Below are positions 5,709 to 53,764 of a stretch of 55,066 nucleotides of DNA, piece by piece. The stretch lies in the IMG/VR virus record IMGVR_UViG_3300014790_000001; one strand, written 5' to 3'. The DNA is from a virus. The translations under genes and the position numbers were made by a program. The notes beneath the pieces are model-generated. The model had not been told where the DNA came from. It made no database searches and saw nothing but the letters and a program-made list of their open reading frames with translations. How positions within the stretch are numbered: the stretch's first letter is position 1; the number at the start of each line of letters is the position of its first letter.

Positions 5709-5746
5709 AGAATTGACCTTGATAGAATCTTGGTCAATTCTTTTTT
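5709..5746 (+). terminator. rho-independent terminator upstream of the integrase
   Basis: Perfect 10-bp stem AGAATTGACC/GGTCAATTCT followed by T5. Confidence 0.8.
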
Positions 5747-5765
5747 AATTGAAAGGAGAATTGAC

Positions 5766-9237: not shown

Positions 9238-9663
9238 ATGCCGAAAGGAAAAGAACTTACTCCGAAGCAGAAAGCGTTTGCCGATGAATATCTGACTGAT
9301 CTGAACGGGACAAGGGCGTATAAAGAAGTCTATAGAAATGTAAAAAATGATGCGACAGCAGCAGCAGCAGCTTCGAGATTGTTAAAAAACGTTAAAGTAA
9401 AAGCCTATATTGCTGAACGAATGAAAGAGATCCAGACCGAGAAGACAGCCGACCTTGAAGAAGTCATCCGATTCTTTTCATCTGTCATGCGTGGTGAAGT
9501 GAAAGACCAGTTTGATTTAGACGCTACTATCTCCGACCGCCTGTCTGCCGGACGTGAACTAATGCGTTGGTATGAGAAAGCCGATGGAGAAGAAAAAGAT
9601 ACTGGTGGAATCACAATCATAAATAACATTCCGAAACCGGAGGGCGCAGATGGGGGAGATTAA
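9238..9663 (+). CDS. terS: terminase small subunit
   Basis: LTPKQKAFADEYL...NGTRAYKEVY... matches the Terminase_2-type N-terminus. Lies immediately upstream of terL. Confidence 0.8.
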   Translation: MPKGKELTPKQKAFADEYLTDLNGTRAYKEVYRNVKNDATAAAAASRLLKNVKVKAYIAERMKEIQTEKTADLEEVIRFFSSVMRGEVKDQFDLDATISDRLSAGRELMRWYEKADGEEKDTGGITIINNIPKPEGADGGD

Positions 9664-10900
9664 GCTTACAGATGTGATAGCTCCGGCTTTTTACGGCGTA
9701 CATTGGGACATCATAGATGGAAAACATACGTATTATGATTTGTCCGGTGGCCGAGGTTCGACTAAATCTTCGTTTGTCGGTACAGAGATACCACTTGGAA
9801 TGATGCAAGACGCAGTAAATGGCATACATTCAAATGCGGTAGTGTTCCGAAAAGTCGGGAATACACTAAGAGAATCGGTATTTGAACAAATCGCATGGGG
9901 AATAGATGCACTTGGAGCATCGGACGAATGGACATCAAGCCTAAGTCCTATGCAATATGTGTATAAGCCGACAGGACAGAAGATAATCTTCCGTGGATTG
10001 GATAAGGCGAAAAAGACAAAATCAATAAAGATTAGCAAAGGATATTTTAAGTACCTATGGTTTGAGGAATTGGACGAATTTGCCGGAATGGAAGAGGTGC
10101 GAATGACACAACAGTCAGTTCTTCGTGGTGGCGAAAAATTCGTTGTTTTTAAATCGTTCAATCCACCGATCAGCAACAGCAACTGGGCGAATAAGTACGT
10201 ATCAGAGCCGAGAACAGACAGCTTAAGGCACAAAAGCGATTATAGATCTGTTCCGGTAGAATGGCTAGGGCAACAATTCATCGATGATGCTGAGTATCTG
10301 AAAGAAACAAACCCGAGAGCTTATGAGCACGAATATCTTGGAATTCCTGTAGGACTTGGAACAAATATTTTTGAACTCTTAGAGATCAGAGAAATCACTG
10401 ATGAAGAAATAAGTAGGATGCAATCTATCTACCAGGGCGAGGACTGGGGATGGTTCCCGGATCCGAAAGCGTTTTTACGTGTTGCTTATGTTCCGAACCA
10501 ACAGAAAGTATACGCACTGGATGAATTGGGTGGCTGCAAAATAAGGAACAGCGAGATGGCACGACAAATCAAAGAAAAGGGATATGATGATTGCGCTATC
10601 TACTGTGGAGTGGATGAAGAAGAGAGCATTGTTGACTTCCGTGATGCCGGACTTCCGGCACGTAAGGCAATCGTGACACCGGGTAGCCGGAAGTATACGT
10701 TTGAATGGTTGCAATGCCGTACATTGGTAATTGACCCAAGACGGACACCAAGACTGTACAAAGAGGTTATAGAGTATGAGCATGAGCGAGATGGCAATGG
10801 TGAAGTGATAGCAGATTATCCGGACGGGAATGACCACTGGATTGATGCATTGAGATATGCTACTAGTCCGATATCTATGAGACGTGGACAGAGTGCGTAG
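9650..10900 (+). CDS. terL: terminase large subunit (PBSX/Terminase_3-like)
   Basis: Walker A-like SGGRGSTKSS and Walker B-like LWFEELDEF. Size and position fit. Confidence 0.9.
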   Translation: MGEIKLTDVIAPAFYGVHWDIIDGKHTYYDLSGGRGSTKSSFVGTEIPLGMMQDAVNGIHSNAVVFRKVGNTLRESVFEQIAWGIDALGASDEWTSSLSPMQYVYKPTGQKIIFRGLDKAKKTKSIKISKGYFKYLWFEELDEFAGMEEVRMTQQSVLRGGEKFVVFKSFNPPISNSNWANKYVSEPRTDSLRHKSDYRSVPVEWLGQQFIDDAEYLKETNPRAYEHEYLGIPVGLGTNIFELLEIREITDEEISRMQSIYQGEDWGWFPDPKAFLRVAYVPNQQKVYALDELGGCKIRNSEMARQIKEKGYDDCAIYCGVDEEESIVDFRDAGLPARKAIVTPGSRKYTFEWLQCRTLVIDPRRTPRLYKEVIEYEHERDGNGEVIADYPDGNDHWIDALRYATSPISMRRGQSA

Positions 10901-12320: not shown

Positions 12321-13664
12321 ATGGAATATCTTATCATAGACCCGTCAACAAGAAAAATTGCAGTCCCCAAAAGCGAACAACTTTTTGGAGTGTACGGAGA
12401 GGGCAATATTGAAAGAAAGTATTTCAAATGCCCTAAAATCGTAGGAGATAATGTCGACTTGTCTGACTGTTACATTTTCGTAAATTACTATACTGCAAAA
12501 GGATTGCCGGGGAAATATACCGTAAAAGATGTGAAGGTAGACGGGGAGAATATCACTTTTTCGTGGGAGTTAAAGCAACACATCTTTGACGCAAACGAGG
12601 ATACATCTATATATTTTGCAGTAGAAGCGAAAAACAAAGATAAAGTAGAAGTGTTCAGAACCAGCCCGGCTACCGGAAAGACCAAAGAGACGATAGACAC
12701 GGATAAAGAGATCGAAGAGACTCACGTCGATGTCATTCTTGACCTTATATCCAGAGTAGACACATTGGAGAAAAAGCCTATTTCCGAGGAGCAGATAGAG
12801 AAATCTGTAAAAAGCTATCTGGAAAAGAATCCTATAGAAGAGACGGATCCAACGGTACCAGCATGGGCAAAAGAGGAAGAAAAACCTACTTATACCGCAG
12901 AAGAAGTAGGAGCACTGCCGAGTACGACCGTGATTCCATCGAAACTTTCAGAACTGACAGCGGACGATGAACACGAAACTGTGACAAAGGAAGAGAAACA
13001 AGCTTGGAACGCAAAGAGTGACTTTTCAGGAGAGTATAGAGATTTAAAGGGAAAACCAGAACTTGCTGAATGGGTGTTGCAAAGTAGGAAACCAACATAT
13101 ACAGCAAGCGAAGTAGGGGCACTGCCTAGTACGACGGAAATTCCGAAAAAATTGTCCGATATGGGAGAAGACACCACGCACAGAACAGTTACAGACACAG
13201 AAAAACAGAGTTGGAACAACAAGAGCAATTTTTCCGGCAACTATGAAGACTTACAAGGAAAGCCAATAATTCCTACAGTACCAACCACTCTTCCAAACCC
13301 GCAAGCCCTAACCATCACATATGGCGGTAAAACACACATCTATGATGGAAGTGAAGCCCTTGCAATCACAATCGAAACAGGTGGCATCGAAAGAGTAGAA
13401 AAACTTGATACAGATACCACAGTAACGCTCGAACCGAATAAGCTATACGTATTCCCAGAGATGGAGTCACTTACCTACACCATCGGAGAGGGCACAGGTG
13501 AGATACATTTCATTTTTAAATCTGGTGCAACGGCTACAAGGGTGGTACACCCGGCAGGGGTCAATATCGGGAGCTTTATGGTAGAGGGCAACAAGATATA
13601 TGAGGTATCAATCTTAGAGGGATTACTTACATCCCAGAATTGGAGCGTGAGCGATGGAACGTAG
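12321..13664 (+). CDS. fibre-like structural protein with tandem KPTYTA-EVGA...FSG-Y-DL-GKP repeats
   Basis: The SGxYxDLxGKP and KPTYTAxEVGA motifs are typical of phage fibre/collar proteins. AGAGGTGA before the ATG. Confidence 0.65.
   Translation: MEYLIIDPSTRKIAVPKSEQLFGVYGEGNIERKYFKCPKIVGDNVDLSDCYIFVNYYTAKGLPGKYTVKDVKVDGENITFSWELKQHIFDANEDTSIYFAVEAKNKDKVEVFRTSPATGKTKETIDTDKEIEETHVDVILDLISRVDTLEKKPISEEQIEKSVKSYLEKNPIEETDPTVPAWAKEEEKPTYTAEEVGALPSTTVIPSKLSELTADDEHETVTKEEKQAWNAKSDFSGEYRDLKGKPELAEWVLQSRKPTYTASEVGALPSTTEIPKKLSDMGEDTTHRTVTDTEKQSWNNKSNFSGNYEDLQGKPIIPTVPTTLPNPQALTITYGGKTHIYDGSEALAITIETGGIERVEKLDTDTTVTLEPNKLYVFPEMESLTYTIGEGTGEIHFIFKSGATATRVVHPAGVNIGSFMVEGNKIYEVSILEGLLTSQNWSVSDGT
12882..13265 (+). 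repeat. two ~59-aa tandem repeat units inside the fibre-like gene
   Basis: aa 188-246 and aa 257-315 align (KPTYTAEEVGALPSTTVIPSKLSE... versus KPTYTASEVGALPSTTEIPKKLSD...). Confidence 0.85.
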
Positions 13665-13695
13665 AAGAACATTAGGAAGTGAGGTGGCAGAAAGT

Positions 13696-14136
13696 ATGAT
13701 AAATGAAGAGTTTGAATTATTAGGCGAAATTGATGTGTCAAATTTTGCATTTGTAAATTCTGTTATGTTTGAAAAGACATGCGACTGCTCAGAACTATTG
13801 CTGATATGGACAGATATGGAAAATTCGACTAATACAGATTCTACGGTTATGGTAAAGATTAATGATATTGTGGCAGATTGTGGAGCGCCTAGAACATCTA
13901 AGAGCGGAAGCAAAAAGAATGGATATACATTATATAAATGCTTAAATGGGTGCGGAACAATAGCAGTATCTCATACCGGAGCTAGTAGTAAAACAATGTA
14001 TAGTGGCAATGCAGGGAATGCTATGATTCCTTACAATTTGATGCCGATTGCAGAGAAATTTAGGAAAATAAAAATCTACAACAGTGGAACACAATACTAT
14101 GCAACATCTGGCACTATAAAAGTTTACGGGAGGTAA
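13696..14136 (+). CDS. hypothetical protein
   Basis: GAGGTGG 8 nt before ATG 13696. The tracked start 13654 is also possible. Confidence 0.6.
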   Translation: MINEEFELLGEIDVSNFAFVNSVMFEKTCDCSELLLIWTDMENSTNTDSTVMVKINDIVADCGAPRTSKSGSKKNGYTLYKCLNGCGTIAVSHTGASSKTMYSGNAGNAMIPYNLMPIAEKFRKIKIYNSGTQYYATSGTIKVYGR

Positions 14137-14169: not shown

Positions 14170-14201
14170 GTCAGTCAGTCAGTCAGTCAGTCAGTCAGTC
14201 A
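14170..14201. repeat. tetranucleotide microsatellite (GTCA)8
   Basis: Eight perfect units counted base by base. Lies in the 158-nt gap between two genes, inside a 36-codon ORF (14143-14253). Confidence 0.97.
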
Positions 14202-14294
14202 CGGCTTAGTTGATTCTAAATCCTGTGTCAAGAATGCCGTGGATATATGTTAAGACGGCGAATGATGATGGCAAAGGCACAGGAGGTAGAAGAG

Positions 14295-14597
14295 ATGCTT
14301 GAATATGTAGGAGATATATCCGTACAAAACAAATGGGGTGCATTAGCTGTGAAAATTAATGCTGAAAACGATACACTGTACCTTTTACTCCCAAAGACTA
14401 ATAAATATATCAAAAATATAATTATAAATGTCTATGGGAATAAGTACGGATATTTAGCATGTAGCGAAAGCACAACAGCGGGAGCGATTGTAGCGAGTAA
14501 TTATACACTTTCTGACAATGCGGTGGATTTTTCGCTAAGAATTGGTGAAAGCAAGGTAGAAACTATTGATTTCGAAGTATACAAAAGAAGTTTATAA
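14295..14597 (+). CDS. hypothetical protein
   Basis: AGGAGG 8 nt before ATG 14295. The tracked start 14247 lacks an SD. Confidence 0.6.
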   Translation: MLEYVGDISVQNKWGALAVKINAENDTLYLLLPKTNKYIKNIIINVYGNKYGYLACSESTTAGAIVASNYTLSDNAVDFSLRIGESKVETIDFEVYKRSL

Positions 14598-15653: not shown

Positions 15654-15737
15654 ATGGCAACAAGTACGATTAATATTATTGTGATTTGTGTGTTTTTCTT
15701 AATTCTTCTTGCATGGCCAGATGGAAAGGGTAAGTAA
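15654..15737 (+). CDS. hydrophobic mini-peptide (27 aa)
   Basis: Hand-translated MATSTINIIVICVFFLILLAWPDGKGK. Its stop overlaps the MuF ATG. Confidence 0.35.
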   Translation: MATSTINIIVICVFFLILLAWPDGKGK

Positions 15738-16969
15738 TGCTTACGCCGGAATATCTCTTTCATGTGACCGAGGGAGCCGAAAAGATAACGTCAGACATGC
15801 ATAAGAACATTATGGACATGATCGTTGAGCGTATAATGGTACGCATAGGTCGTGGAGAAGACTATATGCTTACAGCTACGGACAGGTGGCAGATACAGGT
15901 GTTACAGGAATCCGGCTACTTATTGGAAGACATACAAAAAGAGATTGCTGACAAAACGAAGAAGCAAGAGAACGAGCTGAAAAGCGCATTTGAAGAAGCC
16001 GGAATAAAAGCTATCGAGAGAGACGATGCGATATATAGGGCGGTAGGACTATCACCTACGCCCTTATTGCAATCTCCGGCATTGCTCAGAATACTGGAAA
16101 GAGATTATAACGCTACGTGTGGAGAATGGAGAAACCTTACACGAACAACGGCAGATGAAGCACAGAAGTTGTTTTTGAAAGAGGTCGACACAGCTTACCG
16201 CATGACATCAAGCGGTGCCGTATCATACACACAAGCTGTCAGGAATGCTGTTGACAAGATGATAAAGCAAGGTGTTAAAGTATCCTATCCGTCCGGTAGA
16301 GAAATGAGCATTGAATCAGCCACAATGATGACTGTCCGCACAGGGATAAGCCAGTGCGCCGGAGCAATCGCATTAAAACGAATGGAAGAATTGGAATGGG
16401 ATACTATCTTAGTATCTGCACATGTGGGCGCACGAATTGGTGATGGCGGTAACAATCCAACGAACCACTTTTGGTGGCAAGGAAAATTCTATTCCCGGAC
16501 AGGCAAAGACAAGAGGTTCCCGGACTTCCGAACATCAACAGGCTACGGAACGGTGACAGGGTTGTGTGGCGTGAACTGCCGACACTCTTTCGGGTCCGGT
16601 GACGGTGAAAACAATCCGTATGCAGATATCAATCTGTCAAGCGAAGACAATATCAAAGCGGAAGAACGTGCGAAAAAACAACGTCTTATGGAAAGGCATA
16701 TTCGCAACAGCAAGAGAGAGATTCAGAATTTGCAGACTGCTATAGATGCAAGCGGAGATGATAAGCTTAAATTCGAATTGCAACAGATGTATGACCGCAA
16801 ATCAGCGGTACTCAGACGGCAGAATAAGCAATACCGTGAGTTCTGCAAAGATAATGGTCTTAAAGAATATTCGGAACGTCTACGGGTAGCACAGTGGGAT
16901 AGGTCGCAGGCTGTGAAATCTGCAAAAGCAGCACAAAGATATCTTAATACGAAAGGTGATGTAAAATGA
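15737..16969 (+). CDS. head morphogenesis protein (SPP1 gp7 / Mu F family)
   Basis: Contains the ...GLCGVNCRHSF... motif characteristic of the Phage_Mu_F domain. 410 aa. Confidence 0.8.
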   Translation: MLTPEYLFHVTEGAEKITSDMHKNIMDMIVERIMVRIGRGEDYMLTATDRWQIQVLQESGYLLEDIQKEIADKTKKQENELKSAFEEAGIKAIERDDAIYRAVGLSPTPLLQSPALLRILERDYNATCGEWRNLTRTTADEAQKLFLKEVDTAYRMTSSGAVSYTQAVRNAVDKMIKQGVKVSYPSGREMSIESATMMTVRTGISQCAGAIALKRMEELEWDTILVSAHVGARIGDGGNNPTNHFWWQGKFYSRTGKDKRFPDFRTSTGYGTVTGLCGVNCRHSFGSGDGENNPYADINLSSEDNIKAEERAKKQRLMERHIRNSKREIQNLQTAIDASGDDKLKFELQQMYDRKSAVLRRQNKQYREFCKDNGLKEYSERLRVAQWDRSQAVKSAKAAQRYLNTKGDVK

Positions 16970-17238
16970 GTGGATTGACAAGAATGGCAAAAATGTGCAG
17001 AGAGTGTCCGTTTAAAGACAAGTGCAAAAATAAGCGGTTGGAGAAAGAAGCGTATCTTACTCCTGTTATCTCACCGATTATTGAAGATGTGGCATCACCT
17101 GTATTAAAGGCTCATGATTACAGAAATGTAAAGGTTGCAGAAAAAACGACAATCACTATTGATGTAGAGGACCTGAAAGAAAGAATGCGAAAAGAGATAT
17201 ACAGGCAAGCCGGAATCGGATTGAATTATGGAGCGTAA
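16966..17238 (+). CDS. hypothetical Cys-containing protein
   Basis: 90-codon ORF with CRECPFKDKC at the N-terminus. Confidence 0.6.
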   Translation: MSGLTRMAKMCRECPFKDKCKNKRLEKEAYLTPVISPIIEDVASPVLKAHDYRNVKVAEKTTITIDVEDLKERMRKEIYRQAGIGLNYGA

Positions 17239-17241
17239 CAC

Positions 17242-17601
17242 ATGGAACTAATAACACAGATACTTGCTATATGCGGTGCTATATCTGTTATCGGTGGTGC
17301 TGTTGCGGTGCTTTCCGGGTGGTACAAATCATGGAAAGCACCAAAGCAAAAACAGGACAACCGTATAGAACAGATTGAAAAACGAATAACGAACATTGAA
17401 ACATCTATCACAGGGATTAATCAGAAACTTGATAACGATTATAAGAACATAAGGAATACGAGGGATGATATGAATCTATTAATGAGAAGTATGTTTAATT
17501 TGATCGAAAACAAAATCACAGGGAATAACATTGAGGGTTTAAAAAAAACTCGGGAAGAGCTTGTAAATGCTATGACGGACAAGAAACCAAAGGAATTATG
17601 A
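17242..17601 (+). CDS. membrane-anchored coiled-coil protein
   Basis: N-terminal TM segment (ILAICGAISVIGGAVAVL), then heptad-rich sequence. Confidence 0.6.
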   Translation: MELITQILAICGAISVIGGAVAVLSGWYKSWKAPKQKQDNRIEQIEKRITNIETSITGINQKLDNDYKNIRNTRDDMNLLMRSMFNLIENKITGNNIEGLKKTREELVNAMTDKKPKEL

Positions 17602-17798
17602 AAATATACTCTTTTACACGACCAGAACTTGACTATTTTGAATTAGAATGCAACTTTACATCGGATGAATTGAAACTGTTCCGGCTCCGTGCTAAAGCTA
17701 TGCCTTTAGAGGACTGTGCGGAAGAAATGAATGTGAGTGTGTCTACGGTCAAGAGATTGAGTAGAAGAGTAAATGATAAGATTGAAAGGGTGGTATAG
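17598..17798 (+). CDS. small sigma-70 region-4-like HTH regulator
   Basis: LFRLRAKAMPLEDCAEEMNVSVSTVKRLSRRVNDKI fits a region-4/LuxR-type HTH. Confidence 0.55.
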   Translation: MKIYSFTRPELDYFELECNFTSDELKLFRLRAKAMPLEDCAEEMNVSVSTVKRLSRRVNDKIERVV

Positions 17799-17800
17799 GC

Positions 17801-18427
17801 ATGAACTTCGGAGAAGCCATAAAATGCATGAAAAAGGGAAAGAAAGTTACACGCAATGTATGGAAAGAAAGCTTTTTCAATGGGAGAAAACAGTTTATTT
17901 TTATTGGGAAAAACAAAGGTTTAACAACGAATACGTTTCTTGCAATTCTACCAGAAGAAGAATGCTTTTCGGACTGCATTATGGGGTATACGCGAAAAGG
18001 AATCTTTCAGCCAAACTGGACACCAACACAAGAAGATATGCTTGCGGAAGATTGGGAAATGTATCCGGCAGAGGAAACGGTAGTCGATGAAACGCCGAAC
18101 ATTACGGCAGATGAAATGATTGATCTCAAAAACCGTATCGGGTGGAACATTAAATTTTATTCTACCGGGGAAACAATTATTTCTGAGCACATGGACTATC
18201 AAAAACTCTTAACCGGGGCAGAAAATACATATACGCTGTCGTTTGCTATCCCTAAAAAAAGTCTTGATGGTTTGTCAATGACAAATAAATGCCAAAACGT
18301 TATTGTTTCTGGACTTTTATTCAAAGTATATGCTTCTAGGAATATTGCTGACGATAGCCTTTGGCTCGTGACGGAAAGTGCCTTATCTGAAAAAGAATTT
18401 CACACAATTATAAGATTGGAGAGGTGA
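17801..18427 (+). CDS. DUF2829 (Tad2-like) N-terminal domain protein with an unknown C-terminal extension
   Basis: MNFGEAIKCMKKGKKVTR..W...WTPTQEDMLAEDWEMY matches the DUF2829 hallmark. About 120 extra residues follow. Confidence 0.6.
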   Translation: MNFGEAIKCMKKGKKVTRNVWKESFFNGRKQFIFIGKNKGLTTNTFLAILPEEECFSDCIMGYTRKGIFQPNWTPTQEDMLAEDWEMYPAEETVVDETPNITADEMIDLKNRIGWNIKFYSTGETIISEHMDYQKLLTGAENTYTLSFAIPKKSLDGLSMTNKCQNVIVSGLLFKVYASRNIADDSLWLVTESALSEKEFHTIIRLER

Positions 18428-18431
18428 TTGT

Positions 18432-18893
18432 ATGATACCTAAGATTTTTAAAATAAGCGGATACCTCATAGACCCGACAGGAAGACTTGAGCCACACCAC
18501 ATTAAGGCGAAAATGCTTTATGGCTGTGGATTTCCACTTGTAGGACAGCACATTCACGTACAGAAAGCAGAGATTAAGAAGCTGAATGAAAAGCATCCGC
18601 TTATGAGAGAGAACTGTGATTTGGCAGAATGCGAGAAGTATTTCAATGACGAACCGCCGACAGTGAGCAATAGAAAAGTTGAACCCGGACAGGTGTACAG
18701 GCACTTCAAGGGCGAGACAGTAAAAGTCCTGTATATTGCACAGGATAGCGAAATGCCTGGGCAGTTCAAAGTAGTCTATGAATGTTCTGGTGGCGTGTGG
18801 TGCAGACCTTACGGAATGTTCGTAAGCAAAGTAGACAGGAAGAAATACCCGGATGTCAAGCAGAAGTATAGATTTGAGTTAGTTGAGGAATAA
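18432..18893 (+). CDS. protein with a C-terminal DUF1653-like domain
   Basis: YRHFKGETVKVLYIAQDSE...VVYE...WCRPYGMFVSKV...RFELV. Confidence 0.55.
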   Translation: MIPKIFKISGYLIDPTGRLEPHHIKAKMLYGCGFPLVGQHIHVQKAEIKKLNEKHPLMRENCDLAECEKYFNDEPPTVSNRKVEPGQVYRHFKGETVKVLYIAQDSEMPGQFKVVYECSGGVWCRPYGMFVSKVDRKKYPDVKQKYRFELVEE

Positions 18894-19214
18894 ATGCAAA
18901 AGGTAAATATTCTTGGAACGGAATACGAAATAATTAGAGAAGCGTTTGAAGAAGAAACGATTGATGGCTTTTGCGACTACACAGCGCATATAATAAAAGT
19001 CAGAAATAATAATGTAAACGAAGTTGGTGATTTTGAAAAACTTATGAAAAAGCAATTAAGGCATGAAATCATACATGCTTTTCTTGCTGAAAGCGGATTA
19101 CAGGCAAACTTTGAACATTATAAACAGTTCGGACATGAAGAAACAATCGTTGACTGGTTCGCCATTCAGTTTCCTAAAATTATGAAAACATTTGAAGAAA
19201 TAGGAGCATTGTAA
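18894..19214 (+). CDS. minimal HExxH metallopeptidase-like protein
   Basis: LRHEIIHAF contains HEIIH. 106 aa. Confidence 0.45.
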   Translation: MQKVNILGTEYEIIREAFEEETIDGFCDYTAHIIKVRNNNVNEVGDFEKLMKKQLRHEIIHAFLAESGLQANFEHYKQFGHEETIVDWFAIQFPKIMKTFEEIGAL

Positions 19215-19232
19215 GAAAAGGAGAATGTTATA

Positions 19233-19553
19233 ATGAAAGCAATGTTAAGTCAGCCAATGGCTGGAAAGACAGATCAAGAAATTGTAGAAACAAGAGAAAA
19301 AGCAATTAAGGTTCTTGAGGGAAAAGGGTATGAGATTGTAAATACTCTTTTTACAGATGAATGGTACAGTAATGAATCTATGAAAGAACGTGGAGTAGTT
19401 CAGATTCCATTATGTTTCCTTGCTAAGTCCTTAGAGAATATGTCTCTGTGCCATGCAGCGTACTTCTGTAAAGGCTGGGAAAATGCAAGAGGATGCAAGA
19501 TTGAGCATGATGCTGCGGTTGCTTATGGTTTGGATATTATTTATGAGGAATAA
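19233..19553 (+). CDS. DUF4406 / nucleoside-deoxyribosyltransferase-like protein
   Basis: SQPMAGKT...N...C..AYFCKGWENARGCKIEHDAA pattern. Assignment is tentative. Confidence 0.4.
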   Translation: MKAMLSQPMAGKTDQEIVETREKAIKVLEGKGYEIVNTLFTDEWYSNESMKERGVVQIPLCFLAKSLENMSLCHAAYFCKGWENARGCKIEHDAAVAYGLDIIYEE

Positions 19554-19572
19554 ATAATAAGTGATACTTTTT

Positions 19573-19606
19573 AGAGACTTTAACGAACTGTTAAGGTCTC
19601 TTTTTT
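19573..19606 (+). terminator. rho-independent terminator
   Basis: 11-bp stem AGAGACTTTAA/TTAAGGTCTCT (one G-U pair) with a 7-nt loop, then T5. Confidence 0.8.
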
Positions 19607-19662
19607 ATGCGTAAAATGAAAGCATAGAGAACAACAAATACTAATTTACAGGAGGTATGAGT

Positions 19663-20088
19663 ATGAATCCATATATGCCATATACACCGTACATGCCACA
19701 GGATGCTTATATGCAAGATCAGATGGCATTACGACAACGGATAGACAACTTATCACAAGCTCAGCAGCAATACAAGGCACAGCCACAGCCGAATGTAAAC
19801 TGGATACAGGTAACCGGAATTGACGGGGCAAGGAATCAGATTGTACAGCCGGGAACAACGGCTTGGATGATGGATAACAATGCACCGTATTTCTATGTTA
19901 AATCTGTTGACGGTGTGGGAAGTGTTACGTTTAAAGCTTTTGAATTCCATGAGGTACAGGCGAACAATCCACAACCTGTAGTGGAAAACATGGACGCTAA
20001 GTACGTAACAAGAGAAGAATTCAACAAATTACTGGATACATTGAAACCTCAGCCGGAAGAACAGAAAGGGGAGCTGACACATGAGTAA
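19663..20088 (+). CDS. protein with a P/Y/M/Q-rich N-terminus
   Basis: AGGAGG 7 nt before ATG 19663. MNPYMPYTPYMPQDAYMQDQ..., then a globular NWIQVTGIDGARNQ... domain. Confidence 0.65.
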   Translation: MNPYMPYTPYMPQDAYMQDQMALRQRIDNLSQAQQQYKAQPQPNVNWIQVTGIDGARNQIVQPGTTAWMMDNNAPYFYVKSVDGVGSVTFKAFEFHEVQANNPQPVVENMDAKYVTREEFNKLLDTLKPQPEEQKGELTHE

Positions 20089-20335
20089 TCCACTAATGGG
20101 AATGATGGGCGGTATGCCGGGTGGCAACGGCCCATTCGGAATGATTCAAAGAATGATGGGGATGATGCAAAATACACAGAATCCCGGAGCAATGCTACAG
20201 AATATGGCACAGAGCAACCCGAACATCAAAAAAGCTATGGATATGTGCCAAGGAAGAAACCCGAAAGATGTATTTATGGAGATGTGTCAGCAAAATGGCA
20301 TGAATCCAAACGACATTATCAATAAAATAAAGTGA
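20081..20335 (+). CDS. Met/Gly/Asn/Gln-rich small protein
   Basis: MSNPLMGMMGGMPGGNGPFGMIQRMMGMMQN.... 84 codons. Confidence 0.6.
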   Translation: MSNPLMGMMGGMPGGNGPFGMIQRMMGMMQNTQNPGAMLQNMAQSNPNIKKAMDMCQGRNPKDVFMEMCQQNGMNPNDIINKIK

Positions 20336-20387
20336 TATCCGGACGGAGTGCACACGTCTTGATAAATAAAAGAAAAGGAGAACCAAC

Positions 20388-20787
20388 ATGAACGAGGGAT
20401 TAAACACACTTAGCGCTGCCGATGTAGCAGCGGTCACAAGAAACAACGATGGAAACATGTGGGGTGACGGTGGATGGTTTTGGATCATCATTCTTGCTTT
20501 CCTGTTTTGCGGTAACGGATGGGGAAACAACAAAGGAGCACAGGACGCTTTTGTCTCTGACGAATTCGTGAAAAGAGATATCTTTAACACAAATCAGAAT
20601 GTGTCCAACACAGCTTGCGAGACACAGAGAGACGTATTAGAGAACCGCTATACCACACAGCTCGGCTTGCAGAACTTACAGGCTCAGCAGGCTCAGTGTT
20701 GCTGTAACACACAGAAAGAAATCTTACAGAGTAGATATGACGCGGCATTACAGGCACAGAACATGCAGGCACAGATGGCACAGTGCT
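20388..20787 (+). CDS. exon 1 of an intron-split membrane / Cys-triplet protein
   Basis: TM segment WFWIIILAFLFCG, then Q-rich repeats with a CCC motif. The sequence becomes unrelated after 20787. Confidence 0.75.
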
Positions 20788-21880
20788 TAAAGAGATTCTT
20801 TAAAGCCATAAGGAATCTGTTTACCAAAAAAGTAAACACAGTAGGCACTTACGCATAGTAATATGCGTTGGCAACCGGGAGAATTGCTGGAAAATCTAAG
20901 TTTACTTTTACTTTCGCATTAAAATAATGTATAATTAAAATATCAATAATACTTATGCGGAGGTAAGAATATGTTTTATGTATATGAATGGTTTATAGTT
21001 TCAACTGGAGAAATAATATATGTTGGAAAAGGTCATAAGAAAAGATATAAGGTTAGAAAGCACAATCGTCTTTTTAATGAAATGATAAAAAGATTTGAAT
21101 GTGATAGCCGTATTATCAAAGAATTTGAAGACGAAAGGGAAGCTTTTCTTTACGAGGACATCAGAATTGCCGAACTGAAAAAGAAAGGTCAATGTGTATG
21201 TAATATCAACCGAGGTGGAACCGGCGGTGATACAGAGTGGTGGAACGAAAAAAGAAGAAAAGAATATTCTGAACATAATGTTATGAAATCTAAAAGCCAG
21301 AGACAAAGAATGTCTGAAAAAAATCCGATGAAAGACAAAAAAACAGCCATGAAAGTTGGGAAAACAAAGTGGAGAGGTGTAATGGTCGGAGATGAAGAAT
21401 ATGAAAGTCTGGCACAAGCTGCAAAACATTATGGAGTAACTGTTCAAGCCATATCGTATTGGTTAAAAAGAAAGCAGACACCAGATTTAAGACCTTGCTA
21501 TTATGTCGGAGAAGAAAAACCTATTCCACACAAAATAAAGTATTCATTTTGTAAGCCAGTATATATTGATGGGAAACATTTTGAAAGCGTAAAGAGCGCA
21601 GCTGAATACATTAACGTAACGCAAAACTCTTTGATAGCAGCACTAAAAAATAATAGACCATGTAAAGGACATATTTGTAAATATGACAATCAGCAGCCTA
21701 GTCAGACGAATACCGATAAGAGTAGTTTGAAAGGTTCAGAGACTAACGAGTGAGGACGGAAACCAATAATCTCGACACGAGTACCCGGCTCCTACCCGAA
21801 TGGTAGGATGAAGATATAGTCCGAACTATCGAGGAAACCGATAGAAATGTAGAATAAAGAGTCTACATGTTAACAAAATG
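20788..21880 (+). mobile_element. group I intron (1,093 nt) carrying a GIY-YIG homing endonuclease
   Basis: P-like AATTGCTGGAAAA (20882-94), Q-like AATCAGCAGC (21688-97), R-like GTTCAGAGACTAAC (21734-47) and S AAGATATAGTCC (21811-22), in canonical order. The exon ends in U and the intron ends in G. Splicing restores the reading frame. Confidence 0.85.
20971..21753 (+). CDS. GIY-YIG homing endonuclease with C-terminal NUMOD/IENR-like DNA-binding repeats
   Basis: FYVYEW...GEIIYVGKG...R...E...NINRGG, plus two repeats (YESLAQAAKHYGVTVQAISYW and FESVKSAAEYINVTQNSLIAAL). Confidence 0.85.
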   Translation: MFYVYEWFIVSTGEIIYVGKGHKKRYKVRKHNRLFNEMIKRFECDSRIIKEFEDEREAFLYEDIRIAELKKKGQCVCNINRGGTGGDTEWWNEKRRKEYSEHNVMKSKSQRQRMSEKNPMKDKKTAMKVGKTKWRGVMVGDEEYESLAQAAKHYGVTVQAISYWLKRKQTPDLRPCYYVGEEKPIPHKIKYSFCKPVYIDGKHFESVKSAAEYINVTQNSLIAALKNNRPCKGHICKYDNQQPSQTNTDKSSLKGSETNE

Positions 21881-22149
21881 GCTGTGACATTAAAGAAAGC
21901 ATCTTAGCAGATGGACAGGCTACACGCCAGTTAATCCAGGATAACACGATTCAGAACTTGAGAGACAAGCTCGCTGATCGTGACAGAGATTTGCAGACAG
22001 CATACTGGCAGATCTCACAGGTATCACAGACCAATAACATTATTGATGCAGTGAGACCGACACCAAAACCGGCTTATATGTCTTGCAGTCCATATTTTGC
22101 GTATAACGCATTTGGTAATGGTTGCTGTGCAAGTGGGAATGTGATGTAA
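21881..22149 (+). CDS. exon 2 of the intron-split Cys-triplet protein
   Basis: The frame is open only from 21874. Joining 20787 to 21881 gives ...QMAQCCCDIKESIL..., for a total of 669 nt (222 aa). Confidence 0.75.
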
Positions 22150-22356
22150 GTGAATGATATATCACTACTTGACTTTCTGACAGTGTACGGAGTTGCTTTA
22201 CAGATAGCGAATTTTAACAGTGATCTATCACAGGCAAGTAATTCCGACATCGAAAAACACTTGCACGAGCAAGACAGTAAGTATTTTTTAAAAATAATTG
22301 AAAACCAAAACAAAATCATAAGCATGTTGGAAGAATCCATATCTACAAAAAAGTAG
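22150..22356 (+). CDS. hypothetical small protein
   Basis: GTG start abutting the upstream TAA. 68 codons. Confidence 0.5.
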   Translation: MNDISLLDFLTVYGVALQIANFNSDLSQASNSDIEKHLHEQDSKYFLKIIENQNKIISMLEESISTKK

Positions 22357-22370
22357 TCTTGCGAACATCA

Positions 22371-22402
22371 AAGAGAGTAGGCATGCGCTTGCTCTCTTTT
22401 TT
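22371..22402 (+). terminator. rho-independent terminator
   Basis: 12-bp stem (AAGAGAGTAGGC/GCTTGCTCTCTT, with G-U pairs) and a T-run. Confidence 0.8.
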
Positions 22403-22419
22403 AAGAAAGGAGAAAAAAT

Positions 22420-22848
22420 ATGTTAAATTCTATTGCTAAAAACGCTCAGACAGTAGCAACAAATCAGAATGTATTATTTACGGAAACAAGAGTGAAAAGC
22501 CGTAGATGTGCTTGTAACACAGGATGGCTTTCACATGACAACGGCAGTGGACTTTTTGAAATCACAAACCGTGGGAATCTGCCGATGGCGGTCGAAGTTG
22601 AGTTTAATGGAAATGTAACGTTATCAGCAATAGGCGCAGTAGCGTTATCTATCAAACAGAACGGAGAACCGATTTCCGGTACTGAAATGGACTATACAGT
22701 AGCAACGGCAAATGTGTATCAGAATGTCGGTGCTACTACATTGATTGCAGTTCCGGCCGGAAGTAGCGTCACTATATCGGTTGGCAACGTTGGCACAGTT
22801 GACACATTGGTTAAGGATGCGAATATCATCATTAAAAAACTCTCATAG
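22420..22848 (+). CDS. BclA C-terminal-domain-like (C1q/TNF-like jelly-roll) protein
   Basis: The alternating beta-strand pattern and the ...DANIIIKKLS C-terminus resemble exosporium BclA-CTD. No collagen repeats. Confidence 0.45.
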   Translation: MLNSIAKNAQTVATNQNVLFTETRVKSRRCACNTGWLSHDNGSGLFEITNRGNLPMAVEVEFNGNVTLSAIGAVALSIKQNGEPISGTEMDYTVATANVYQNVGATTLIAVPAGSSVTISVGNVGTVDTLVKDANIIIKKLS

Positions 22849-22865
22849 AAAAGGGGTGAGTTTCT

Positions 22866-23456
22866 ATGATTGATTTTAAAAGCAACCTAGATGTCAAAAC
22901 TCCGAAAGAAATCTTTGCCGAAATCAACGAACGGTTTATCGGAGCTGTTATGATGCACGGACAGTTTGCGGACTACTTCGATTTCCTTGGCTTAAAAGGC
23001 TTTAAGCGGATGCATGAGTACCAGCACATTTCGGAAAGCTTGGAACGTAGGAAAGTGTGCCGATATTTTATAAACCATCACAATCAGCTTATTGATGATG
23101 TATTTGATGGAAAAGTGAATGTTATCCCGGATGCGTGGAGAACGGCCAAACGGTTAAGCGTTGGGAAAAGCACAAAGCAGAAAGCCGTAGAAGATGGCTT
23201 TGTCGAGTATCACAATTGGGAATCCGAAACAAAGGAAGTGTACGAACAGTACGCACACACGCTAAGAGAAAACGGCCATGTGGCTGATGCTATGTTCGTG
23301 GAATGTTTGGTAGAGGATGTAAGCGAAGAATTAAAAACTGTAGAATGCATGATTAACGACCTCATATCTACCGGATACGACATGGTATACATCACAGAAA
23401 TTCAATCGGAGATTCACGACAAATACAAAAAGAAAATGAAAGGAATCGAGGTGTAA
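22866..23456 (+). CDS. ferritin-like four-helix-bundle protein (metal ligands apparently degenerate)
   Basis: HGQFADYFDFLGLKGFKRMHEYQHISESLERRK parallels the ferritin helix A/B region (...LKGFAKFF..QS.EE.EHA). Confidence 0.4.
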   Translation: MIDFKSNLDVKTPKEIFAEINERFIGAVMMHGQFADYFDFLGLKGFKRMHEYQHISESLERRKVCRYFINHHNQLIDDVFDGKVNVIPDAWRTAKRLSVGKSTKQKAVEDGFVEYHNWESETKEVYEQYAHTLRENGHVADAMFVECLVEDVSEELKTVECMINDLISTGYDMVYITEIQSEIHDKYKKKMKGIEV

Positions 23457-23459
23457 TAA

Positions 23460-23882
23460 ATGAGCGAGATCAAAAAGATTTTGGAAGAACAGCTTGAACG
23501 TGAGAAAGCATCTGCAAAAAAAGACTTAAATATGTCTAACTTACAGGCAATGTACATGATTACATCTACATTGTGCAATATGAAATCTTTGGAATGCGAA
23601 AGCGTACCGGGGATGATTGCGGATGCATCGGAAAACCTTATCAAGAAGTACAGTAACGGAAAGTACGACAAAAACATTGATGCACTATATGACCAGTACA
23701 TTATGGCGAAAGAGATGTATCAACAGAACGGAGATCAGGCACACAGAGACAAACTGATGGAAAGTGTCGGGAAACTTATGGTAGAAGTGTACGACATGCT
23801 TTCCTCTATGGTGATGGATTCAGATTTTGCAGAAGAACGGAAAGAGATTCAAAGGCAAATCAAGAAGCTTGCGGAAATGTAA
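23460..23882 (+). CDS. hypothetical helical protein
   Basis: TAA TAA ATG junction with the upstream gene. 140 codons. Confidence 0.6.
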   Translation: MSEIKKILEEQLEREKASAKKDLNMSNLQAMYMITSTLCNMKSLECESVPGMIADASENLIKKYSNGKYDKNIDALYDQYIMAKEMYQQNGDQAHRDKLMESVGKLMVEVYDMLSSMVMDSDFAEERKEIQRQIKKLAEM

Positions 23883-24114
23883 AAACATGGGTACGGAGTA
23901 CTATATATATTAATGTTACGATATATACGGTGAATCACATAGGACATTTTCTTTTCTTGCTTGATACACCTCCTTTCATTAAAGCCTAATAGCGGAATGC
24001 TGATTAAAGGGCGGCCAAACGCCCGTTAGGCTTTCCACTAAGGTTGCGGACTTGGGGAATCGTCATCTTATGTTACCTACTAAAAAATATAATATGATAA
24101 ATTTTCATCCCGCA

Positions 24115-24164
24115 AAGGATAGTGCACAGTATGGTGCATGGATTCATATCCGGCTATCCTTTTT
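24115..24164 (+). terminator. branched terminator-like structure
   Basis: Outer stem AAGGATAG/CTATCCTT encloses two hairpins (TGCAC..GTGCA and GGAT..ATCC), followed by TTTTC. Confidence 0.5.
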
Positions 24165-24263
24165 CTGTATAGAGTTAGTTACGGAACAATATGCAGATTG
24201 ACCGTCAAATAGCCGTAACAGTGGTTGGAACTGTATAGAGGGAACACTTACACCAACCACTAA

Positions 24264-24350
24264 CGGGATATAGTTCAATGGTAGAACAAAAGTCACAATC
24301 ATCTCTTTAAAAAAAGACTTATGTCCACGGTTCGATTCCGTGTATCCCGA
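24264..24350 (+). tRNA. tRNA-like element with an aberrant anticodon arm (anticodon not assignable)
   Basis: Perfect 7-bp acceptor stem CGGGATA/TATCCCG, then U8 A9. D arm GTTC-AATGGTA-GAAC and T arm CACGG-TTCGATT-CCGTG. The AAGTC/GACTT stem closes a 21-nt loop instead of a 7-nt one. Confidence 0.5.
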
Positions 24351-24431
24351 TTACCCCGACAGAGGTTCATCTGTCTGAATCCCTACCGCAGACGAAGCGG
24401 TTAATAAGAGACGTTGAGGAGGATATGCAAC

Positions 24432-25040
24432 ATGAAAAATATTATTCAGATTATCAAAGATGCCGGTCTTGAAATTACAGACGAGCAGAAAAAGACAATC
24501 GAAGATTCAGTGAAAGAGAATTACAAAAGCGTATCTGACTATGAAAAGCAGACACGAAAAGTAGAAACTCTGACACAGGAACGTGACAACTTTAAAACAC
24601 AGTATGAAACAGCGAAAGAGACTTTGGACGGGTTCGAGGGAAAAGACTTCGATGCGATCACAAGAGAACGTGATGAGTGGAAGACGAAAGCTGAGAATGC
24701 AGAAAAAGAATGGAAAGACAAGCTTGATGCCAGTGAAAAAGAGTACAACCAGAAGATTGAAGAAAGAGACTTCAATGACGTTCTGACAAAGGCTCTTGCG
24801 GGCGAAAAATTCAGTTCTGATTTTGCCAAGACTGGCATTATCAACATGATTAAGGATAAAGGCCTGAAACGTGAGGGCGAAAAGATTCTTGGTCTTGATG
24901 ATTACATGAAAGAATTGAAAGAATCTCAGAAAGATGCTTTCGTGACGGATGGCAAGACACCGCCAGTATTCACTACACCTACAGAAAAAGGTGGAAGTGA
25001 ACCGAAAGCAGAGCCGTTTGTTCCTGGAACTGTTTGGTAA
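24432..25040 (+). CDS. scaffolding protein (phage GP20-like)
   Basis: Acidic coiled-coil protein immediately upstream of the capsid gene. GAGGAGG before the ATG. Confidence 0.7.
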   Translation: MKNIIQIIKDAGLEITDEQKKTIEDSVKENYKSVSDYEKQTRKVETLTQERDNFKTQYETAKETLDGFEGKDFDAITRERDEWKTKAENAEKEWKDKLDASEKEYNQKIEERDFNDVLTKALAGEKFSSDFAKTGIINMIKDKGLKREGEKILGLDDYMKELKESQKDAFVTDGKTPPVFTTPTEKGGSEPKAEPFVPGTVW

Positions 25041-25108
25041 AACCATACTGTTATCCGGCTATTGATAGAGGATAGTCGTTGACCTTAAAGAATTAAAGGA
25101 GAACAAAA

Positions 25109-37542: not shown

Positions 37543-37728
37543 ATGGCAGCTATGAGCGAAGAAACCATGTGCGAAGTGATCAAAAGCTGTGCCTACGGTT
37601 ATACCGTAAACGAATTGGCAGAACACTACAGCATGGAAAAAACAGATGCAGAAAAGTTTGCGAAAGATCATGCATCAGAGATTACAGAAACGAAAGAACA
37701 CTTAAAACAGGAGGGATATATTGAATAG
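37543..37728 (+). CDS. hypothetical soluble mini-protein
   Basis: GGAAGGAG before ATG 37543. No TM segment, so not a holin. Confidence 0.5.
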   Translation: MAAMSEETMCEVIKSCAYGYTVNELAEHYSMEKTDAEKFAKDHASEITETKEHLKQEGYIE

Positions 37729-53762: not shown

Positions 53763-53764
53763 GA

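Follow-up and report, generated by a model that had tools for sequence, protein, structure and literature searches.

In the 55,066-nt stretch of viral DNA kept as IMG/VR record IMGVR_UViG_3300014790_000001 (hereafter the window, i.e., this stretch at its full length), the non-coding region 23883-24431, ending at the start of a head scaffolding protein gene, contains on the plus strand a tRNA-derived element (24264..24350) that combines a complete cloverleaf with an anticodon loop of 21 nt. Judging from the sequence, we consider this element to be a non-decoding tRNA-derived module residing in a leader of the kind already noticed upstream of GP20 genes. The explanation placed first here, with a confidence that stops slightly short of an even call, is that the module serves as a tRNA-shaped substrate for RNase P and RNase Z in the scaffold-capsid leader and that its processing would release a stable non-decoding RNA, the loop of which probably has an added role.

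The initial annotation had singled out this region as a highly structured stretch of about 550 nt free of open reading frames (ORFs) and located just before the scaffold gene. It is indeed the longest stretch in the window lacking an ORF of at least 50-70 aa, the fold of the whole 568-nt region deviates by z = -4.05 from that of dinucleotide shuffles, and the leader ends at ATG 24432 of the PF06810 gene. The sole ORF inside the region (52 aa, minus strand, 24144-24302) looks spurious; minus-strand coding from it and the ribosome-binding-site-like GAAAGGAGGTG was rejected, there being no conserved ORF behind them. Within the element, the acceptor stem CGGGATA/TATCCCG (24264-70/24343-49) is paired in 7/7 positions and is followed by TA (U8 A9) and the D arm GTTC-AATGGTA-GAAC (24273-87). 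The anticodon stem AAGTC/GACTT (24290-94/24316-20) closes the expanded loop ACAAUCAUCUCUUUAAAAAAA (21 nt, 24295..24315), after which come the 5-nt variable loop ATGTC (24321-25) and the T arm CACGG-TTCGATT-CCGTG (24326-42) with its stem paired in 5/5 positions, while the discriminator A24350 is succeeded by TTA, so that no CCA is encoded. All these parts read as had been proposed from the bare sequence. The tRNA model of Rfam (RF00005) matches exactly the ends 24264 and 24350 with 53.2 bits (gathering score 29, E=1e-8, model positions 1-71), and its alignment carries an insertion of 22 nt in the anticodon loop; the normal-loop tRNA that would have pointed to a misdrawn fold was thus not returned. 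The cloverleaf with the 21-nt loop is calculated at -20.7 kcal/mol against a minimum free energy of -21.8 (gap 1.1), the anticodon arm contributing -2.3 kcal/mol and the loop having no internal structure.

Accordance with a decoding tRNA ends at the anticodon arm: the 7-bp acceptor stem, the D arm with G18G19, the T loop of TΨC type and the discriminator are all present, while the 7-nt loop with U33 and purine 37 on a 5-bp stem is found in none of the 18 alleles described below. Since the anticodon loop comprises 21 nt (21-27 nt in sister phages), the element cannot decode. By default ARAGORN reports neither a tRNA nor a transfer-messenger RNA (tmRNA) in the element; its tmRNA search and that of Rfam were empty also for the two-piece form. 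The topology is that of a standard tRNA and no non-tRNA family of Rfam matches at E<=10, which sets the element apart from YrlA/Y RNA; the annotated proteins, obtained by scanning a part of the ORFs, include no Ro-like domain. What the element does possess is the arrangement expected of a processing substrate, namely an acceptor stem stacked coaxially on the T arm, with unpaired RNA free on either side as 5′ leader and 3′ trailer.

Conservation of the body and variation of the loop

Using a 22-nt pattern taken from the element, 59 near-identical gut-phage contigs were collected from IMG/VR. The tRNA body is constant across them and the loop is variable, owing to a 4-nt indel after ACAAU, to A, G or T after CTCTTT and to 6-8 A's in a homopolymer run. 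In total 18 alleles of the element are distinguished, differing almost only in the loop, the length of which ranges from 21 to 27 nt; AAUCAYCUCUUU makes up its constant core, and the indel, the position after CUCUUU and the length of the A-run are hypervariable. The heptamer CUUUAAA, noted initially as potentially presenting the anticodon UUA, is present, but it proved to be one allele of CUUU[A/G/U]AA, carried with A, G or U among sister phages, and does not count as evidence for a suppressor. The window type dominates its clade, with 44 distinct sequence contexts against 2 with canonical tRNA-Lys.

Nucleotide diversity (pi) was estimated from 22 distinct sister sequences aligned over 2.5 kb. 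In the scaffold and capsid genes it amounts to 0.074-0.090 at third and 0.009-0.012 at first codon positions; the tRNA body, having 2 segregating sites in 66 nt, gives 0.007-0.012, i.e., it is ~8-fold less diverse than synonymous sites and on par with first codon positions. One of the two changes (A67G, acceptor stem) retains a U-G wobble pair and the other (G22A) weakens the D stem. The comparison indicates that the body is under purifying selection. The adjacent 9-bp hairpin on the same strand (24220..24261; helix AGTGGTTGG/CCAACCACT at 24220-28/24253-61 as initially annotated, with the purine-rich loop AUAGAGGGAAC) is conserved more strongly than any other segment of the region (pi 0.004), the leader 3′ of the tRNA-like element reaches 0.018, and a branched terminator-like structure further upstream 0.031.

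Relatives outside this set, referred to below by locus labels, extend the record of the expanded loop. Pyrimidine-rich loops of 23-25 nt are kept in L278, L280 and L281 (scaffold 87-90% identical) and in the recombinant L072 group: L278 has ACAAUCACCUCUUUGUGUCAUAA on the stem AAGUC/GACUU, L280 and L072 have CUUUCUCGUUUCAUCACCUAAGAA and UUUCCUCUUUCGUUACAUAAUAG, respectively, on CAGAUG/CAUCUG, and L281 has UUCCCUUUCCUAUCAUCUCUUAGAA on CAAAUGA/UCAUUUG, the shift from CAGAUG to CAAAUGA being matched on the opposite strand. The core (A)AUCAYCUCUU is common to these expanded loops, the window loop including CAUCUCUUU, and it resembles the 3′ tail of 16S rRNA, AUCACCUCCUUUC. The distant phages L226, L243 and L258 also have enlarged loops of CCUC type where the anticodon arm is expected. 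Maintenance of the loop on compensated stems points to a probable additional role for it. A search for antisense targets of the loop segment AAAGAGATGAT with at most 1 mismatch gave 7 matches against 3.9 expected, none of them at a notable ribosome-binding site.

As for ancestry, L417 and L418 (= L306), belonging to the same clade with scaffolds 93-94% identical, share with the window an identical upstream leader and the identical 5′ half CGGGATATAGTTCAATGGTAGAAC, after which they continue into the arm CAGAC(A/G)-CUUUUAA-(U/C)GUCUG and are called tRNA-Lys(UUU) by ARAGORN. The nearest normal-loop relatives of the window element carry tRNA-Lys(UUU), with CUUUUAA as its anticodon loop. In their 3′ parts the long-loop forms of L072 and L280 show a clear relationship to the tRNA-Lys of L417/L418, so that they derive from a tRNA-Lys; for the window/L278 lineage a Lys origin is only suggested, by the shared 5′ half and the CUUU[U/G/A]AA heptamer. 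A breakpoint within the tRNA and the two-mismatch acceptor stems of chimeras show recombination, with exchange running between widely shared D-arm sequence and the conserved leader. The D-arm pattern TAGTTCAATGGNAGAAC was considered as a specific marker and discarded as too generic, being present in more than 119 unrelated phage tRNAs of ~20 specificities; the search with it brought up the tRNA-Lys sister L306.

The slot and the leader upstream of scaffold genes

The place occupied by the element recurs as a slot, in which an acceptor/T-arm unit ends ~75-90 nt 5′ of the ATG of scaffold genes (PF06810/GP20) and abuts their leader; the distance is 83 nt in the window and in L125 and 85 nt in L203. 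A profile search through 185,579 representative (GTDB) genomes yielded 62 scaffold loci with 30-46% identity, mostly from Lachnospiraceae and Oscillospiraceae. A strict acceptor/T-arm scan placed the end of such a unit 72-92 nt before the ATG in 24 of the 62 loci and 105-152 nt before it in 8 further ones. The insert separating the 5′ acceptor strand from the T arm spans 37-43 nt in canonical cases, 55 nt in the window and 8, 20, 28 or 33 nt elsewhere. ARAGORN detects a tRNA close upstream of the scaffold gene in ~25 of the 62 loci (Gln, Ile, Thr, Lys, Gly, Ser, one Sup-UUA and odd loops), and a second, independent sample drawn from IMG/VR shows tRNAs for Ile (UAU), Tyr, Met and Lys with their ends 76-82 nt away from the ATG. 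The pattern of the conserved leader found no match in the same representative genomes, so the host assignment (Lachnospiraceae/Oscillospiraceae) rests on distant scaffold homologues; relatives among cultured phages (C. difficile phiCD38-2, CDSH1 and slur17, ~30% scaffold identity) are recognized at the protein level only.

Occupancy of the slot varies on short distances. Where the window has the cloverleaf, relatives with 87% identical capsids (L125 type) carry a hairpin and a minihelix reduced to acceptor stem and T arm, CGUGGU..GAGGG-UUCGACU-CCCUC.ACCACG-A; L199 (79% scaffold identity) has no tRNA in the slot, L203 (69%) has a canonical tRNA-Ile(UAU), L206 and L207 (45%) have a tRNA with an 8-nt loop, and some slot tRNAs have lost the anticodon arm. 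In L241 (2352-2421) and L250 (2291-2377) the slot is filled by RAGATH-21 RNA directly abutting the scaffold leader. Literature searches returned nothing describing a tRNA slot upstream of scaffold genes, and by these and the Rfam searches the conserved slot, the degenerate series of its occupants and the long-loop form are undescribed.

The leader proper (24351..24431, plus strand) starts with UUACCCCG and consists of two covarying hairpins: A (24358-75), with the loop GGUUCA (consensus nGGUUYAU), and B (24386-24400), with the loop AGACGAA (consensus GACGR). AAUCCC (24378-83, consensus AAUCCA) lies between them, and hairpin B is followed by UUAAUAAG..ACG (consensus UUAAUAAA..ACG) and by the Shine-Dalgarno (SD) sequence GAGGAGG (24416-22), for which the consensus is AGGAGGAU and then the start codon. 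The gene downstream (24432..25040, plus strand) encodes the head scaffolding protein (PHROG 194, 1.9e-22), the homologues of which carry PF06810, formerly Phage_GP20. In an alignment of 29 diverse leaders 58 cells are changed on both sides of a pair against 14.5 in shuffles (0/500), and 93.9% of cells are paired against 32-47% with slid partners. The covariance model built from this alignment has a single match in the window (24340-24432, 83.5 bits) and 21 matches in loci outside training, all ending at the scaffold start, with none elsewhere in 290 kb. The C-rich segments ACCCCG and AAUCC of the leader are complementary to the SD and either invariant or subject to C-to-U changes only; their pairing with it, which could occlude the ribosome-binding site, is compatible with the data and unproven.

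Positioned directly 5′ of a PF06810 gene, 24351-24431 invites comparison with the Rfam motifs GP20-a (RF02991) and GP20-b (RF03003), and six further candidate structured RNAs upstream of GP20 genes are listed in a 2023 survey (PMC10690425). Neither motif matches 23800-24500 at E<=10 or, at gathering score, the 20 loci with a window-type leader; GP20-b does match other relatives directly after a tRNA or tRNA-like element, as well as C. difficile phage phiCD38-2. We therefore treat the window leader as a putative further variant of the GP20-leader kind, and it may correspond to one of the unnamed candidates of that survey (PMC10690425). The Rfam scan of the whole 55-kb window returned no family besides tRNA, with GP20-a, GP20-b, RAGATH-21, ROOL and other families unmatched (ROOL is absent from the window at gathering score and from the region at E<=10), and blastn of 23400-25100 against 50,697 phage records found no match.

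Several side observations concern the slot and its vicinity. RAGATH-21 (75-85 bits) occurs in or near the slot also in L239, L248 and L256, and Skipping-rope RNAs lie a few hundred nt 5′ of the slot region in L236, L237 and L251. L218 (uncultured Lachnospiraceae UMGS1368) bears in the slot at 2318-2389 a canonical-looking suppressor tRNA with the anticodon UUA, reading UAA. In L474 (IMG/VR 3300045988_035545) a conserved slot tRNA-Ile(UAU) has suffered a fresh deletion of the 3′ strand of the anticodon stem, apparently exemplifying how slot tRNAs start to lose the anticodon arm. A second odd tRNA is located at 99-169 of L125 (Rfam 49 bits, 6-nt anticodon loop, ARAGORN "tRNA-??? (aa)"), and non-canonical loop sizes seem to be common in this phage group (8 nt in L206/L207, 6 nt in L231, 8 nt in L245). 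Just 5′ of the slot, L212, L222, L226, L236, L241, L247 and L260 contain small zinc-ribbon-like ORFs (CxxC...CxxC), the 3′ ends of which hold two to four GAGCC repeats and then a hairpin ending GGCTCTTTTT; the repeats look like alternative partners for the terminator stem in an attenuator-like arrangement. In the tRNA-less leader of L199-L201 a sub-threshold match to gut-2 RNA (2775-2820, 32 bits at a gathering score of 39.8) sits 3′ of a 44-46-aa ORF.

Processing and its alternatives

Among the options listed in the initial annotation, that of a part of a larger non-coding RNA holds in so far as the element adjoins a conserved structured scaffold leader, a neutral pseudogene is disfavoured, and a processing signal and a mimic or decoy appear to be still live. 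For the processing module placed first above, membership of the element in the scaffold-capsid primary transcript is suggested by the leader filling the ~80 nt up to the gene and by the lack of a detectable sigma-70-type promoter there: the scan of 23700-24600 revealed no promoter-like site between the tRNA slot and the scaffold gene. Excision, in turn, is suggested by the fact that the tRNA-derived occupants of the slot share only the acceptor/T-arm "top half", which RNase P recognizes. The same half is recognized by RNase Z and by the CCA-adding enzyme, and CCA-less tRNA precursors of Firmicutes are matured by RNase Z. Model hairpins consisting of acceptor and T-stem-loop are efficient substrates of RNase P, which also cleaves phage RNAs and mRNAs (PMC11143913). 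RNase P would thus be expected to cut at 24263/24264 and RNase Z after A24350, where the discriminator is followed by UUA and not by an encoded CCA. The scaffold-capsid mRNA would be freed with a defined 5′ end at UUACCCCG and a structured leader, the upstream RNA would be left over and a stable tRNA-shaped RNA released, and the pyrimidine-rich loop, which resembles the 16S 3′ tail, would probably have a role besides processing, given that it is kept on compensated stems.

Some findings count against this explanation. Slots without a tRNA in L199, L220, L240 and phiCD38-2 imply that the tRNA is not required for scaffold expression. Drift would be expected outside the top half if that half alone mattered; yet in this clade only ~1 site segregates over the ~32 nt of D arm, anticodon stem and constant loop sequence, where ~10 would be expected at the synonymous rate. 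This conservation, along with the compensated stems, indicates that processing alone is insufficient. The promoter driving the leader was not located: consensus scans of 23700-24600 for promoters and terminators gave none above shuffle expectation, and the sole plus-strand promoter-like site of this interval overlaps the 5′ end of the tRNA-like element (24247-24274). Terminator-like hairpins often stand just upstream of the slot in relatives, and two acceptor-stem mismatches are tolerated in the chimeric relatives L072 and L306.

An unlikely explanation is that the released RNA, as a descendant of tRNA-Lys(UUU), acts in trans as an anti-defence decoy, titrating or being cut without harm by a host tRNA-Lys anticodon nuclease (of PrrC, RloC or PARIS AriB type) or another tRNA-binding defence protein, in which case hypervariability of the loop would mirror an arms race. 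It draws on the tRNA-Lys(UUU) that fills this slot in the nearest normal-loop relatives and has its 5′ half in common with the window element, on the clear relation of the L072 and L280 3′ parts to tRNA-Lys, on the heptamer CUUU[U/G/A]AA present in window-type loops next to CUUUUAA as the Lys anticodon loop, and on purifying selection that embraces the whole L-shaped body and not the top half alone, with ~16 alleles of the loop. The element also borders anti-defence cargo (Tad2-like in the window, Acb2_Tad1_hairpin in L280). It is documented that PARIS AriB cleaves tRNA-Lys and that a tRNA-Lys variant of phage origin brings rescue (PMC11464382), and evasion of anticodon nucleases through loop changes has been proposed for phage tRNAs (PMC10264068). 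Lys descent of the window/L278 lineage itself (stem AAGUC, T arm CACGG) is, however, not demonstrable, since the common 5′ half may reflect D-arm recombination; variation of the loop, being mostly homopolymer slippage and the 4-nt indel, could be mutational rather than selected; and the enlarged pyrimidine-rich loops on unrelated bodies in L226, L243 and L258 fit a role in cis better. Likewise doubtful is the broader proposal of a purpose-built tRNA-Lys-derived RNA with a loop mimicking the 16S tail, excised from the capsid-operon leader to act in trans as an anticodon-nuclease decoy or an anti-SD small RNA, the slot being a general docking site at which Clostridia phages would swap processed small RNAs (tRNAs, decoys, RAGATH-21) by D-arm/leader recombination.

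Distinctly unlikely in our estimation is a cis-regulatory arm, with the tRNA body as a rigid scaffold presenting the anti-SD-like AAUCAYCUCUUU loop to the loop of the adjacent 9-bp hairpin (AUAGAGGGAA) or to the scaffold SD and thereby tuning leader folding and scaffold translation. It draws on the recurrence of enlarged CCUC/CUCUUU-type loops in the window clade and in the three distant phages just named, on the conservation of the constant part of the window loop and on the complementarity of the hairpin loop (including AGAGGGAA) to the pyrimidine tract of the expanded loop. The best duplexes between the two loops use the motif GAGGGAA or CGGGAA, in L280 the two sides have changed together (UUCUCG with CGGGAA), the strongest pairings of the loop with the leader further downstream land on the SD, and other leader segments complementary to the SD are also invariant (ACCCCG, AAUCC and CACCUCCUUUC). 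Complementarity to the hairpin loop is only marginally better than that of shuffled loops (P 0.04-0.33 per lineage), and as a whole the duplexes do not significantly surpass composition-matched shuffles (the same range for the hairpin loop, 0.12-0.77 for the leader), the lineages being few and not independent. Relatives with canonical tRNAs keep the same 9-bp hairpin and leader, so that pairing is not needed, and excision of the element would abolish any pairing in cis.

It is improbable that the element is a decaying pseudogene, i.e., a phage tRNA broken by insertion into the anticodon loop and drifting without function. The loop is unreadable and polymorphic in length, fresh lesions of slot tRNAs do occur (the anticodon-arm deletion in tRNA-Ile of L474) and chimeras with mismatched acceptor stems exist; against this, the body stays ~8-fold below synonymous diversity and is conserved like first codon positions, one of its two substitutions keeps a wobble pair while the other weakens the D stem, the expanded loop persists on compensated stems down to 87-90% scaffold identity, and the window type dominates its clade.

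A working decoder, either freed of a short intron or reading Lys, Gln or ochre codons with its long loop depending on the CUUU[U/G/A]AA allele, is very improbable. C32, U33, A37 and A38 are correctly placed in CUUUNAA, and suppressor or odd-loop tRNAs occupy the slot elsewhere (Sup-UUA in L218, 8-nt loops in L206 and L207). ARAGORN in intron mode returns a tRNA-Met(cat) i(31,5), rejected as an artefact since its 5-nt "intron" falls inside a stem, and the tRNA-Cys(aca) obtained at low threshold was discarded for its long (17-nt) unpaired "variable arm". No stem closes any 7-nt loop, the loop is internally unstructured, and CUUUNAA does not become stem-closed by any excision. A group I intron would need more than the 14-20 extra nt, no intron family of Rfam matches, and no bulge-helix-bulge can be drawn. 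Indels to the left and right of the heptamer give the loop its range of 21 to 27 nt. RNA ligase, polynucleotide kinase/phosphatase and splicing endonuclease are all lacking among the annotated genes, and, read with the standard code, the window's ORFs look unremarkable. Finally, the view of the element as an attachment site (attP) copied from a host tRNA gene, prompted by the habit of temperate phages to integrate in tRNA genes and carry a part of them and by this phage being temperate, can practically be set aside, since the shape is that of an entire tRNA instead of a 3′ piece, the element belongs to the head-gene module and is 17 kb distant from an integrase that is a large serine recombinase, the order minor head-slot-scaffold is intact in integrated relatives (173-394-kb bacterial contigs, many GTDB genomes) and the conserved-leader pattern is unmatched in the 185,579 representative genomes.

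Surroundings of the element and comparison with known systems

Upstream of the 9-bp hairpin the non-coding region holds further plus-strand structures. A long-range helix enclosing GGGCG-GCCAAA-CGCCC, described initially, is confirmed in position and sequence and turns out to be part of a conserved three-way junction (23981..24034), supported by covariation and independent folds. It is formed by P1 AAAGCCTAA/TTAGGCTTT (23981-89/24026-34), P1a AGC-GGAAT-GCT within the same span and P2 GGGCG-GCCAAA-CGCCC (24009-13/24020-24), with the junction nucleotides UAG...CUGnUAAA...G. In an alignment of 14 diverse sequences 26 cells are changed on both sides against 8.9 in shuffles (0/500), and 86% of cells are paired against 32-47% with slid partners. 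Independent minimum-free-energy folds return the three helices although the sequence of P2 is wholly different between lineages, and no Rfam family matches the junction. Just 5′ of it, the pyrimidine tract CACCTCCTTTC (23967..23977), with an exact CACCUCCUUUC at these positions, is identical to the 3′ tail of Firmicute 16S rRNA and in this sense anti-SD-like; it stands at the same place in L199, L203, L278 and L281 and is weaker in L219, L235 and L254. The branched terminator-like structure, initially delimited as 24115-24164, reads from 24117 to 24164, with GGATAG (24117-22) paired to CTATCC (24154-59) around two inner hairpins and T5 at 24160-64; a simple terminator scan of the plus strand leaves it uncalled. 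Together with the 9-bp hairpin it is kept with compensating changes in L278, L280 and L281, the inner hairpins of the former being altered and the latter reading AGTGGATAG/CTATTCACT with compensatory changes in L280.

By its gene content the phage is temperate and siphovirus-like, with a serine integrase (large serine recombinase, 5730-7121), small (9238-9663) and large (9650-10900) terminase, minor head protein (15737-16969), lysin (37721-38716), CI-like repressor (39915-40649), ERF recombinase (46605-47258) and cytosine methylase (53750-54871). A 7-kb island of accessory and anti-defence cargo (16966..23882, plus strand) separates the minor head gene from the leader and is wholly lacking in close relatives, L125 among them. 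Encoded in it are a Tad2-like (Thoeris anti-defence) domain (17801-18427; PF11195, 3.6e-17), DUF1653 (18432-18893), DUF4406 (19233-19553) and a homing-endonuclease-like gene (20971-21753). Cargo of relatives at the same place includes LemA, Tad2-like, RyR and Acb2_Tad1_hairpin genes, ROOL RNA and ordinary tRNAs. In L127 (1-491), L129 (1-556) and L133 (1-219), which have an 87% identical capsid, ROOL RNA, with scores reaching 350 bits, precedes tRNA-Ile(UAU) and tRNA-Asn(GUU), ~3.3 kb 5′ of the capsid gene. Elsewhere in the window, a perfect (GTCA)x8 at 14170-14201, in the gap between the ORFs 13654-14136 and 14247-14597, could be a slippage-prone, phase-variable tract, and DUF4317 extends over two overlapping ORFs, 51140-51583 and 51523-52224 (profile positions 1-93 and 140-370), which could reflect a frameshift, a sequencing error or a programmed shift.

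Phage tRNAs are usually seen as decoders serving codon compensation or escape from anticodon nucleases, and this locus suggests another use of the tRNA shape. One fixed leader position, common to a wide family of gut Clostridia phages and preceding the most highly expressed late genes, interchangeably holds tRNAs, amputated tRNAs, minihelices and long-loop forms. Nearly isogenic phages thereby offer a natural allelic series running from canonical tRNA-Lys through the long loop and the minihelix to none. With phage tRNAs (RF00005), above all the tRNA-Lys(UUU) of L417/L418/L306, the element shares the cloverleaf, G18G19, the T loop TTCGATT, the slot and the 5′ half CGGGATATAGTTCAATGGTAGAAC; it differs from them in the window-type loop of 21-27 nt in place of 7, within which no U33/R37 loop can be closed. 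Anticodon-nuclease-evading phage tRNAs (T5 tRNA-Lys versus AriB, PMC11464382; loop mutants, PMC10264068) resemble it in kinship to tRNA-Lys, altered loop and anti-defence neighbours, but they decode and have 7-nt loops. With a loop three times as large as usual, the element of the window could take on an anti-nuclease role only as a decoy.

Non-decoding roles of tRNA shapes are also familiar from tRNA-Other of Bacillus cereus (PMC3399842), from the YrlA/Y RNA domain, found in phages too (PMC4201824), and from the tRNA domain of tmRNA. In YrlA the tRNA domain is permuted and sits on a long stem that binds Ro, usually with the rsr gene as a neighbour, whereas the element has standard topology and open acceptor ends; tmRNA has no anticodon arm and contains a tag ORF. 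RAGATH-21 (RF03097), a small structured RNA with a long terminal stem, takes the same slot in L241/L250, but its internal architecture is different and it is unmatched in the window; a literature search for it brought no paper text mentioning RAGATH-21.

Closer parallels are provided by tRNA-like signals for RNase P and RNase Z, in which, as proposed here, a tRNA-shaped module within a longer transcript would be recognized by its top half, and minihelix versions of which are at hand in the relatives. Mitochondrial tRNA punctuation, mascRNA of MALAT1 and the tufB tRNA-mRNA co-transcript of E. coli are examples of such processing, and the C4 RNA precursor of phages P1 and P7 is grouped with these signals. 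Unlike pure processing signals, the window clade conserves the D arm, the anticodon stem and a part of the loop as well. If processing takes place, the locus would be a bacterial-virus counterpart of mitochondrial tRNA punctuation and of the tRNA/ribozyme insulators of synthetic biology; if the decoy or anti-SD proposal holds, it would represent a new class of regulatory or anti-defence RNA on a tRNA chassis.

Post-transcriptional autoregulation of the scaffold has a known precedent in P22, and the uncatalogued variant of the GP20 leader with its covariation support is a candidate operator for autoregulation of this kind; the small conserved three-way-junction motif is gained in addition. The candidate cis-regulatory RNAs GP20-a and GP20-b (RF02991, RF03003) are likewise situated directly 5′ of PF06810 genes, and the passages of the survey dealing with GP20 candidates do not describe an adjoining tRNA slot (PMC10690425). 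The window leader is unmatched by either motif even at E<=10, yet GP20-b has the same general layout of two hairpins, an A-rich stretch and an SD, and in the relatives that carry this motif only 4-6 nt separate it from the end of a preceding tRNA or tRNA-like element.

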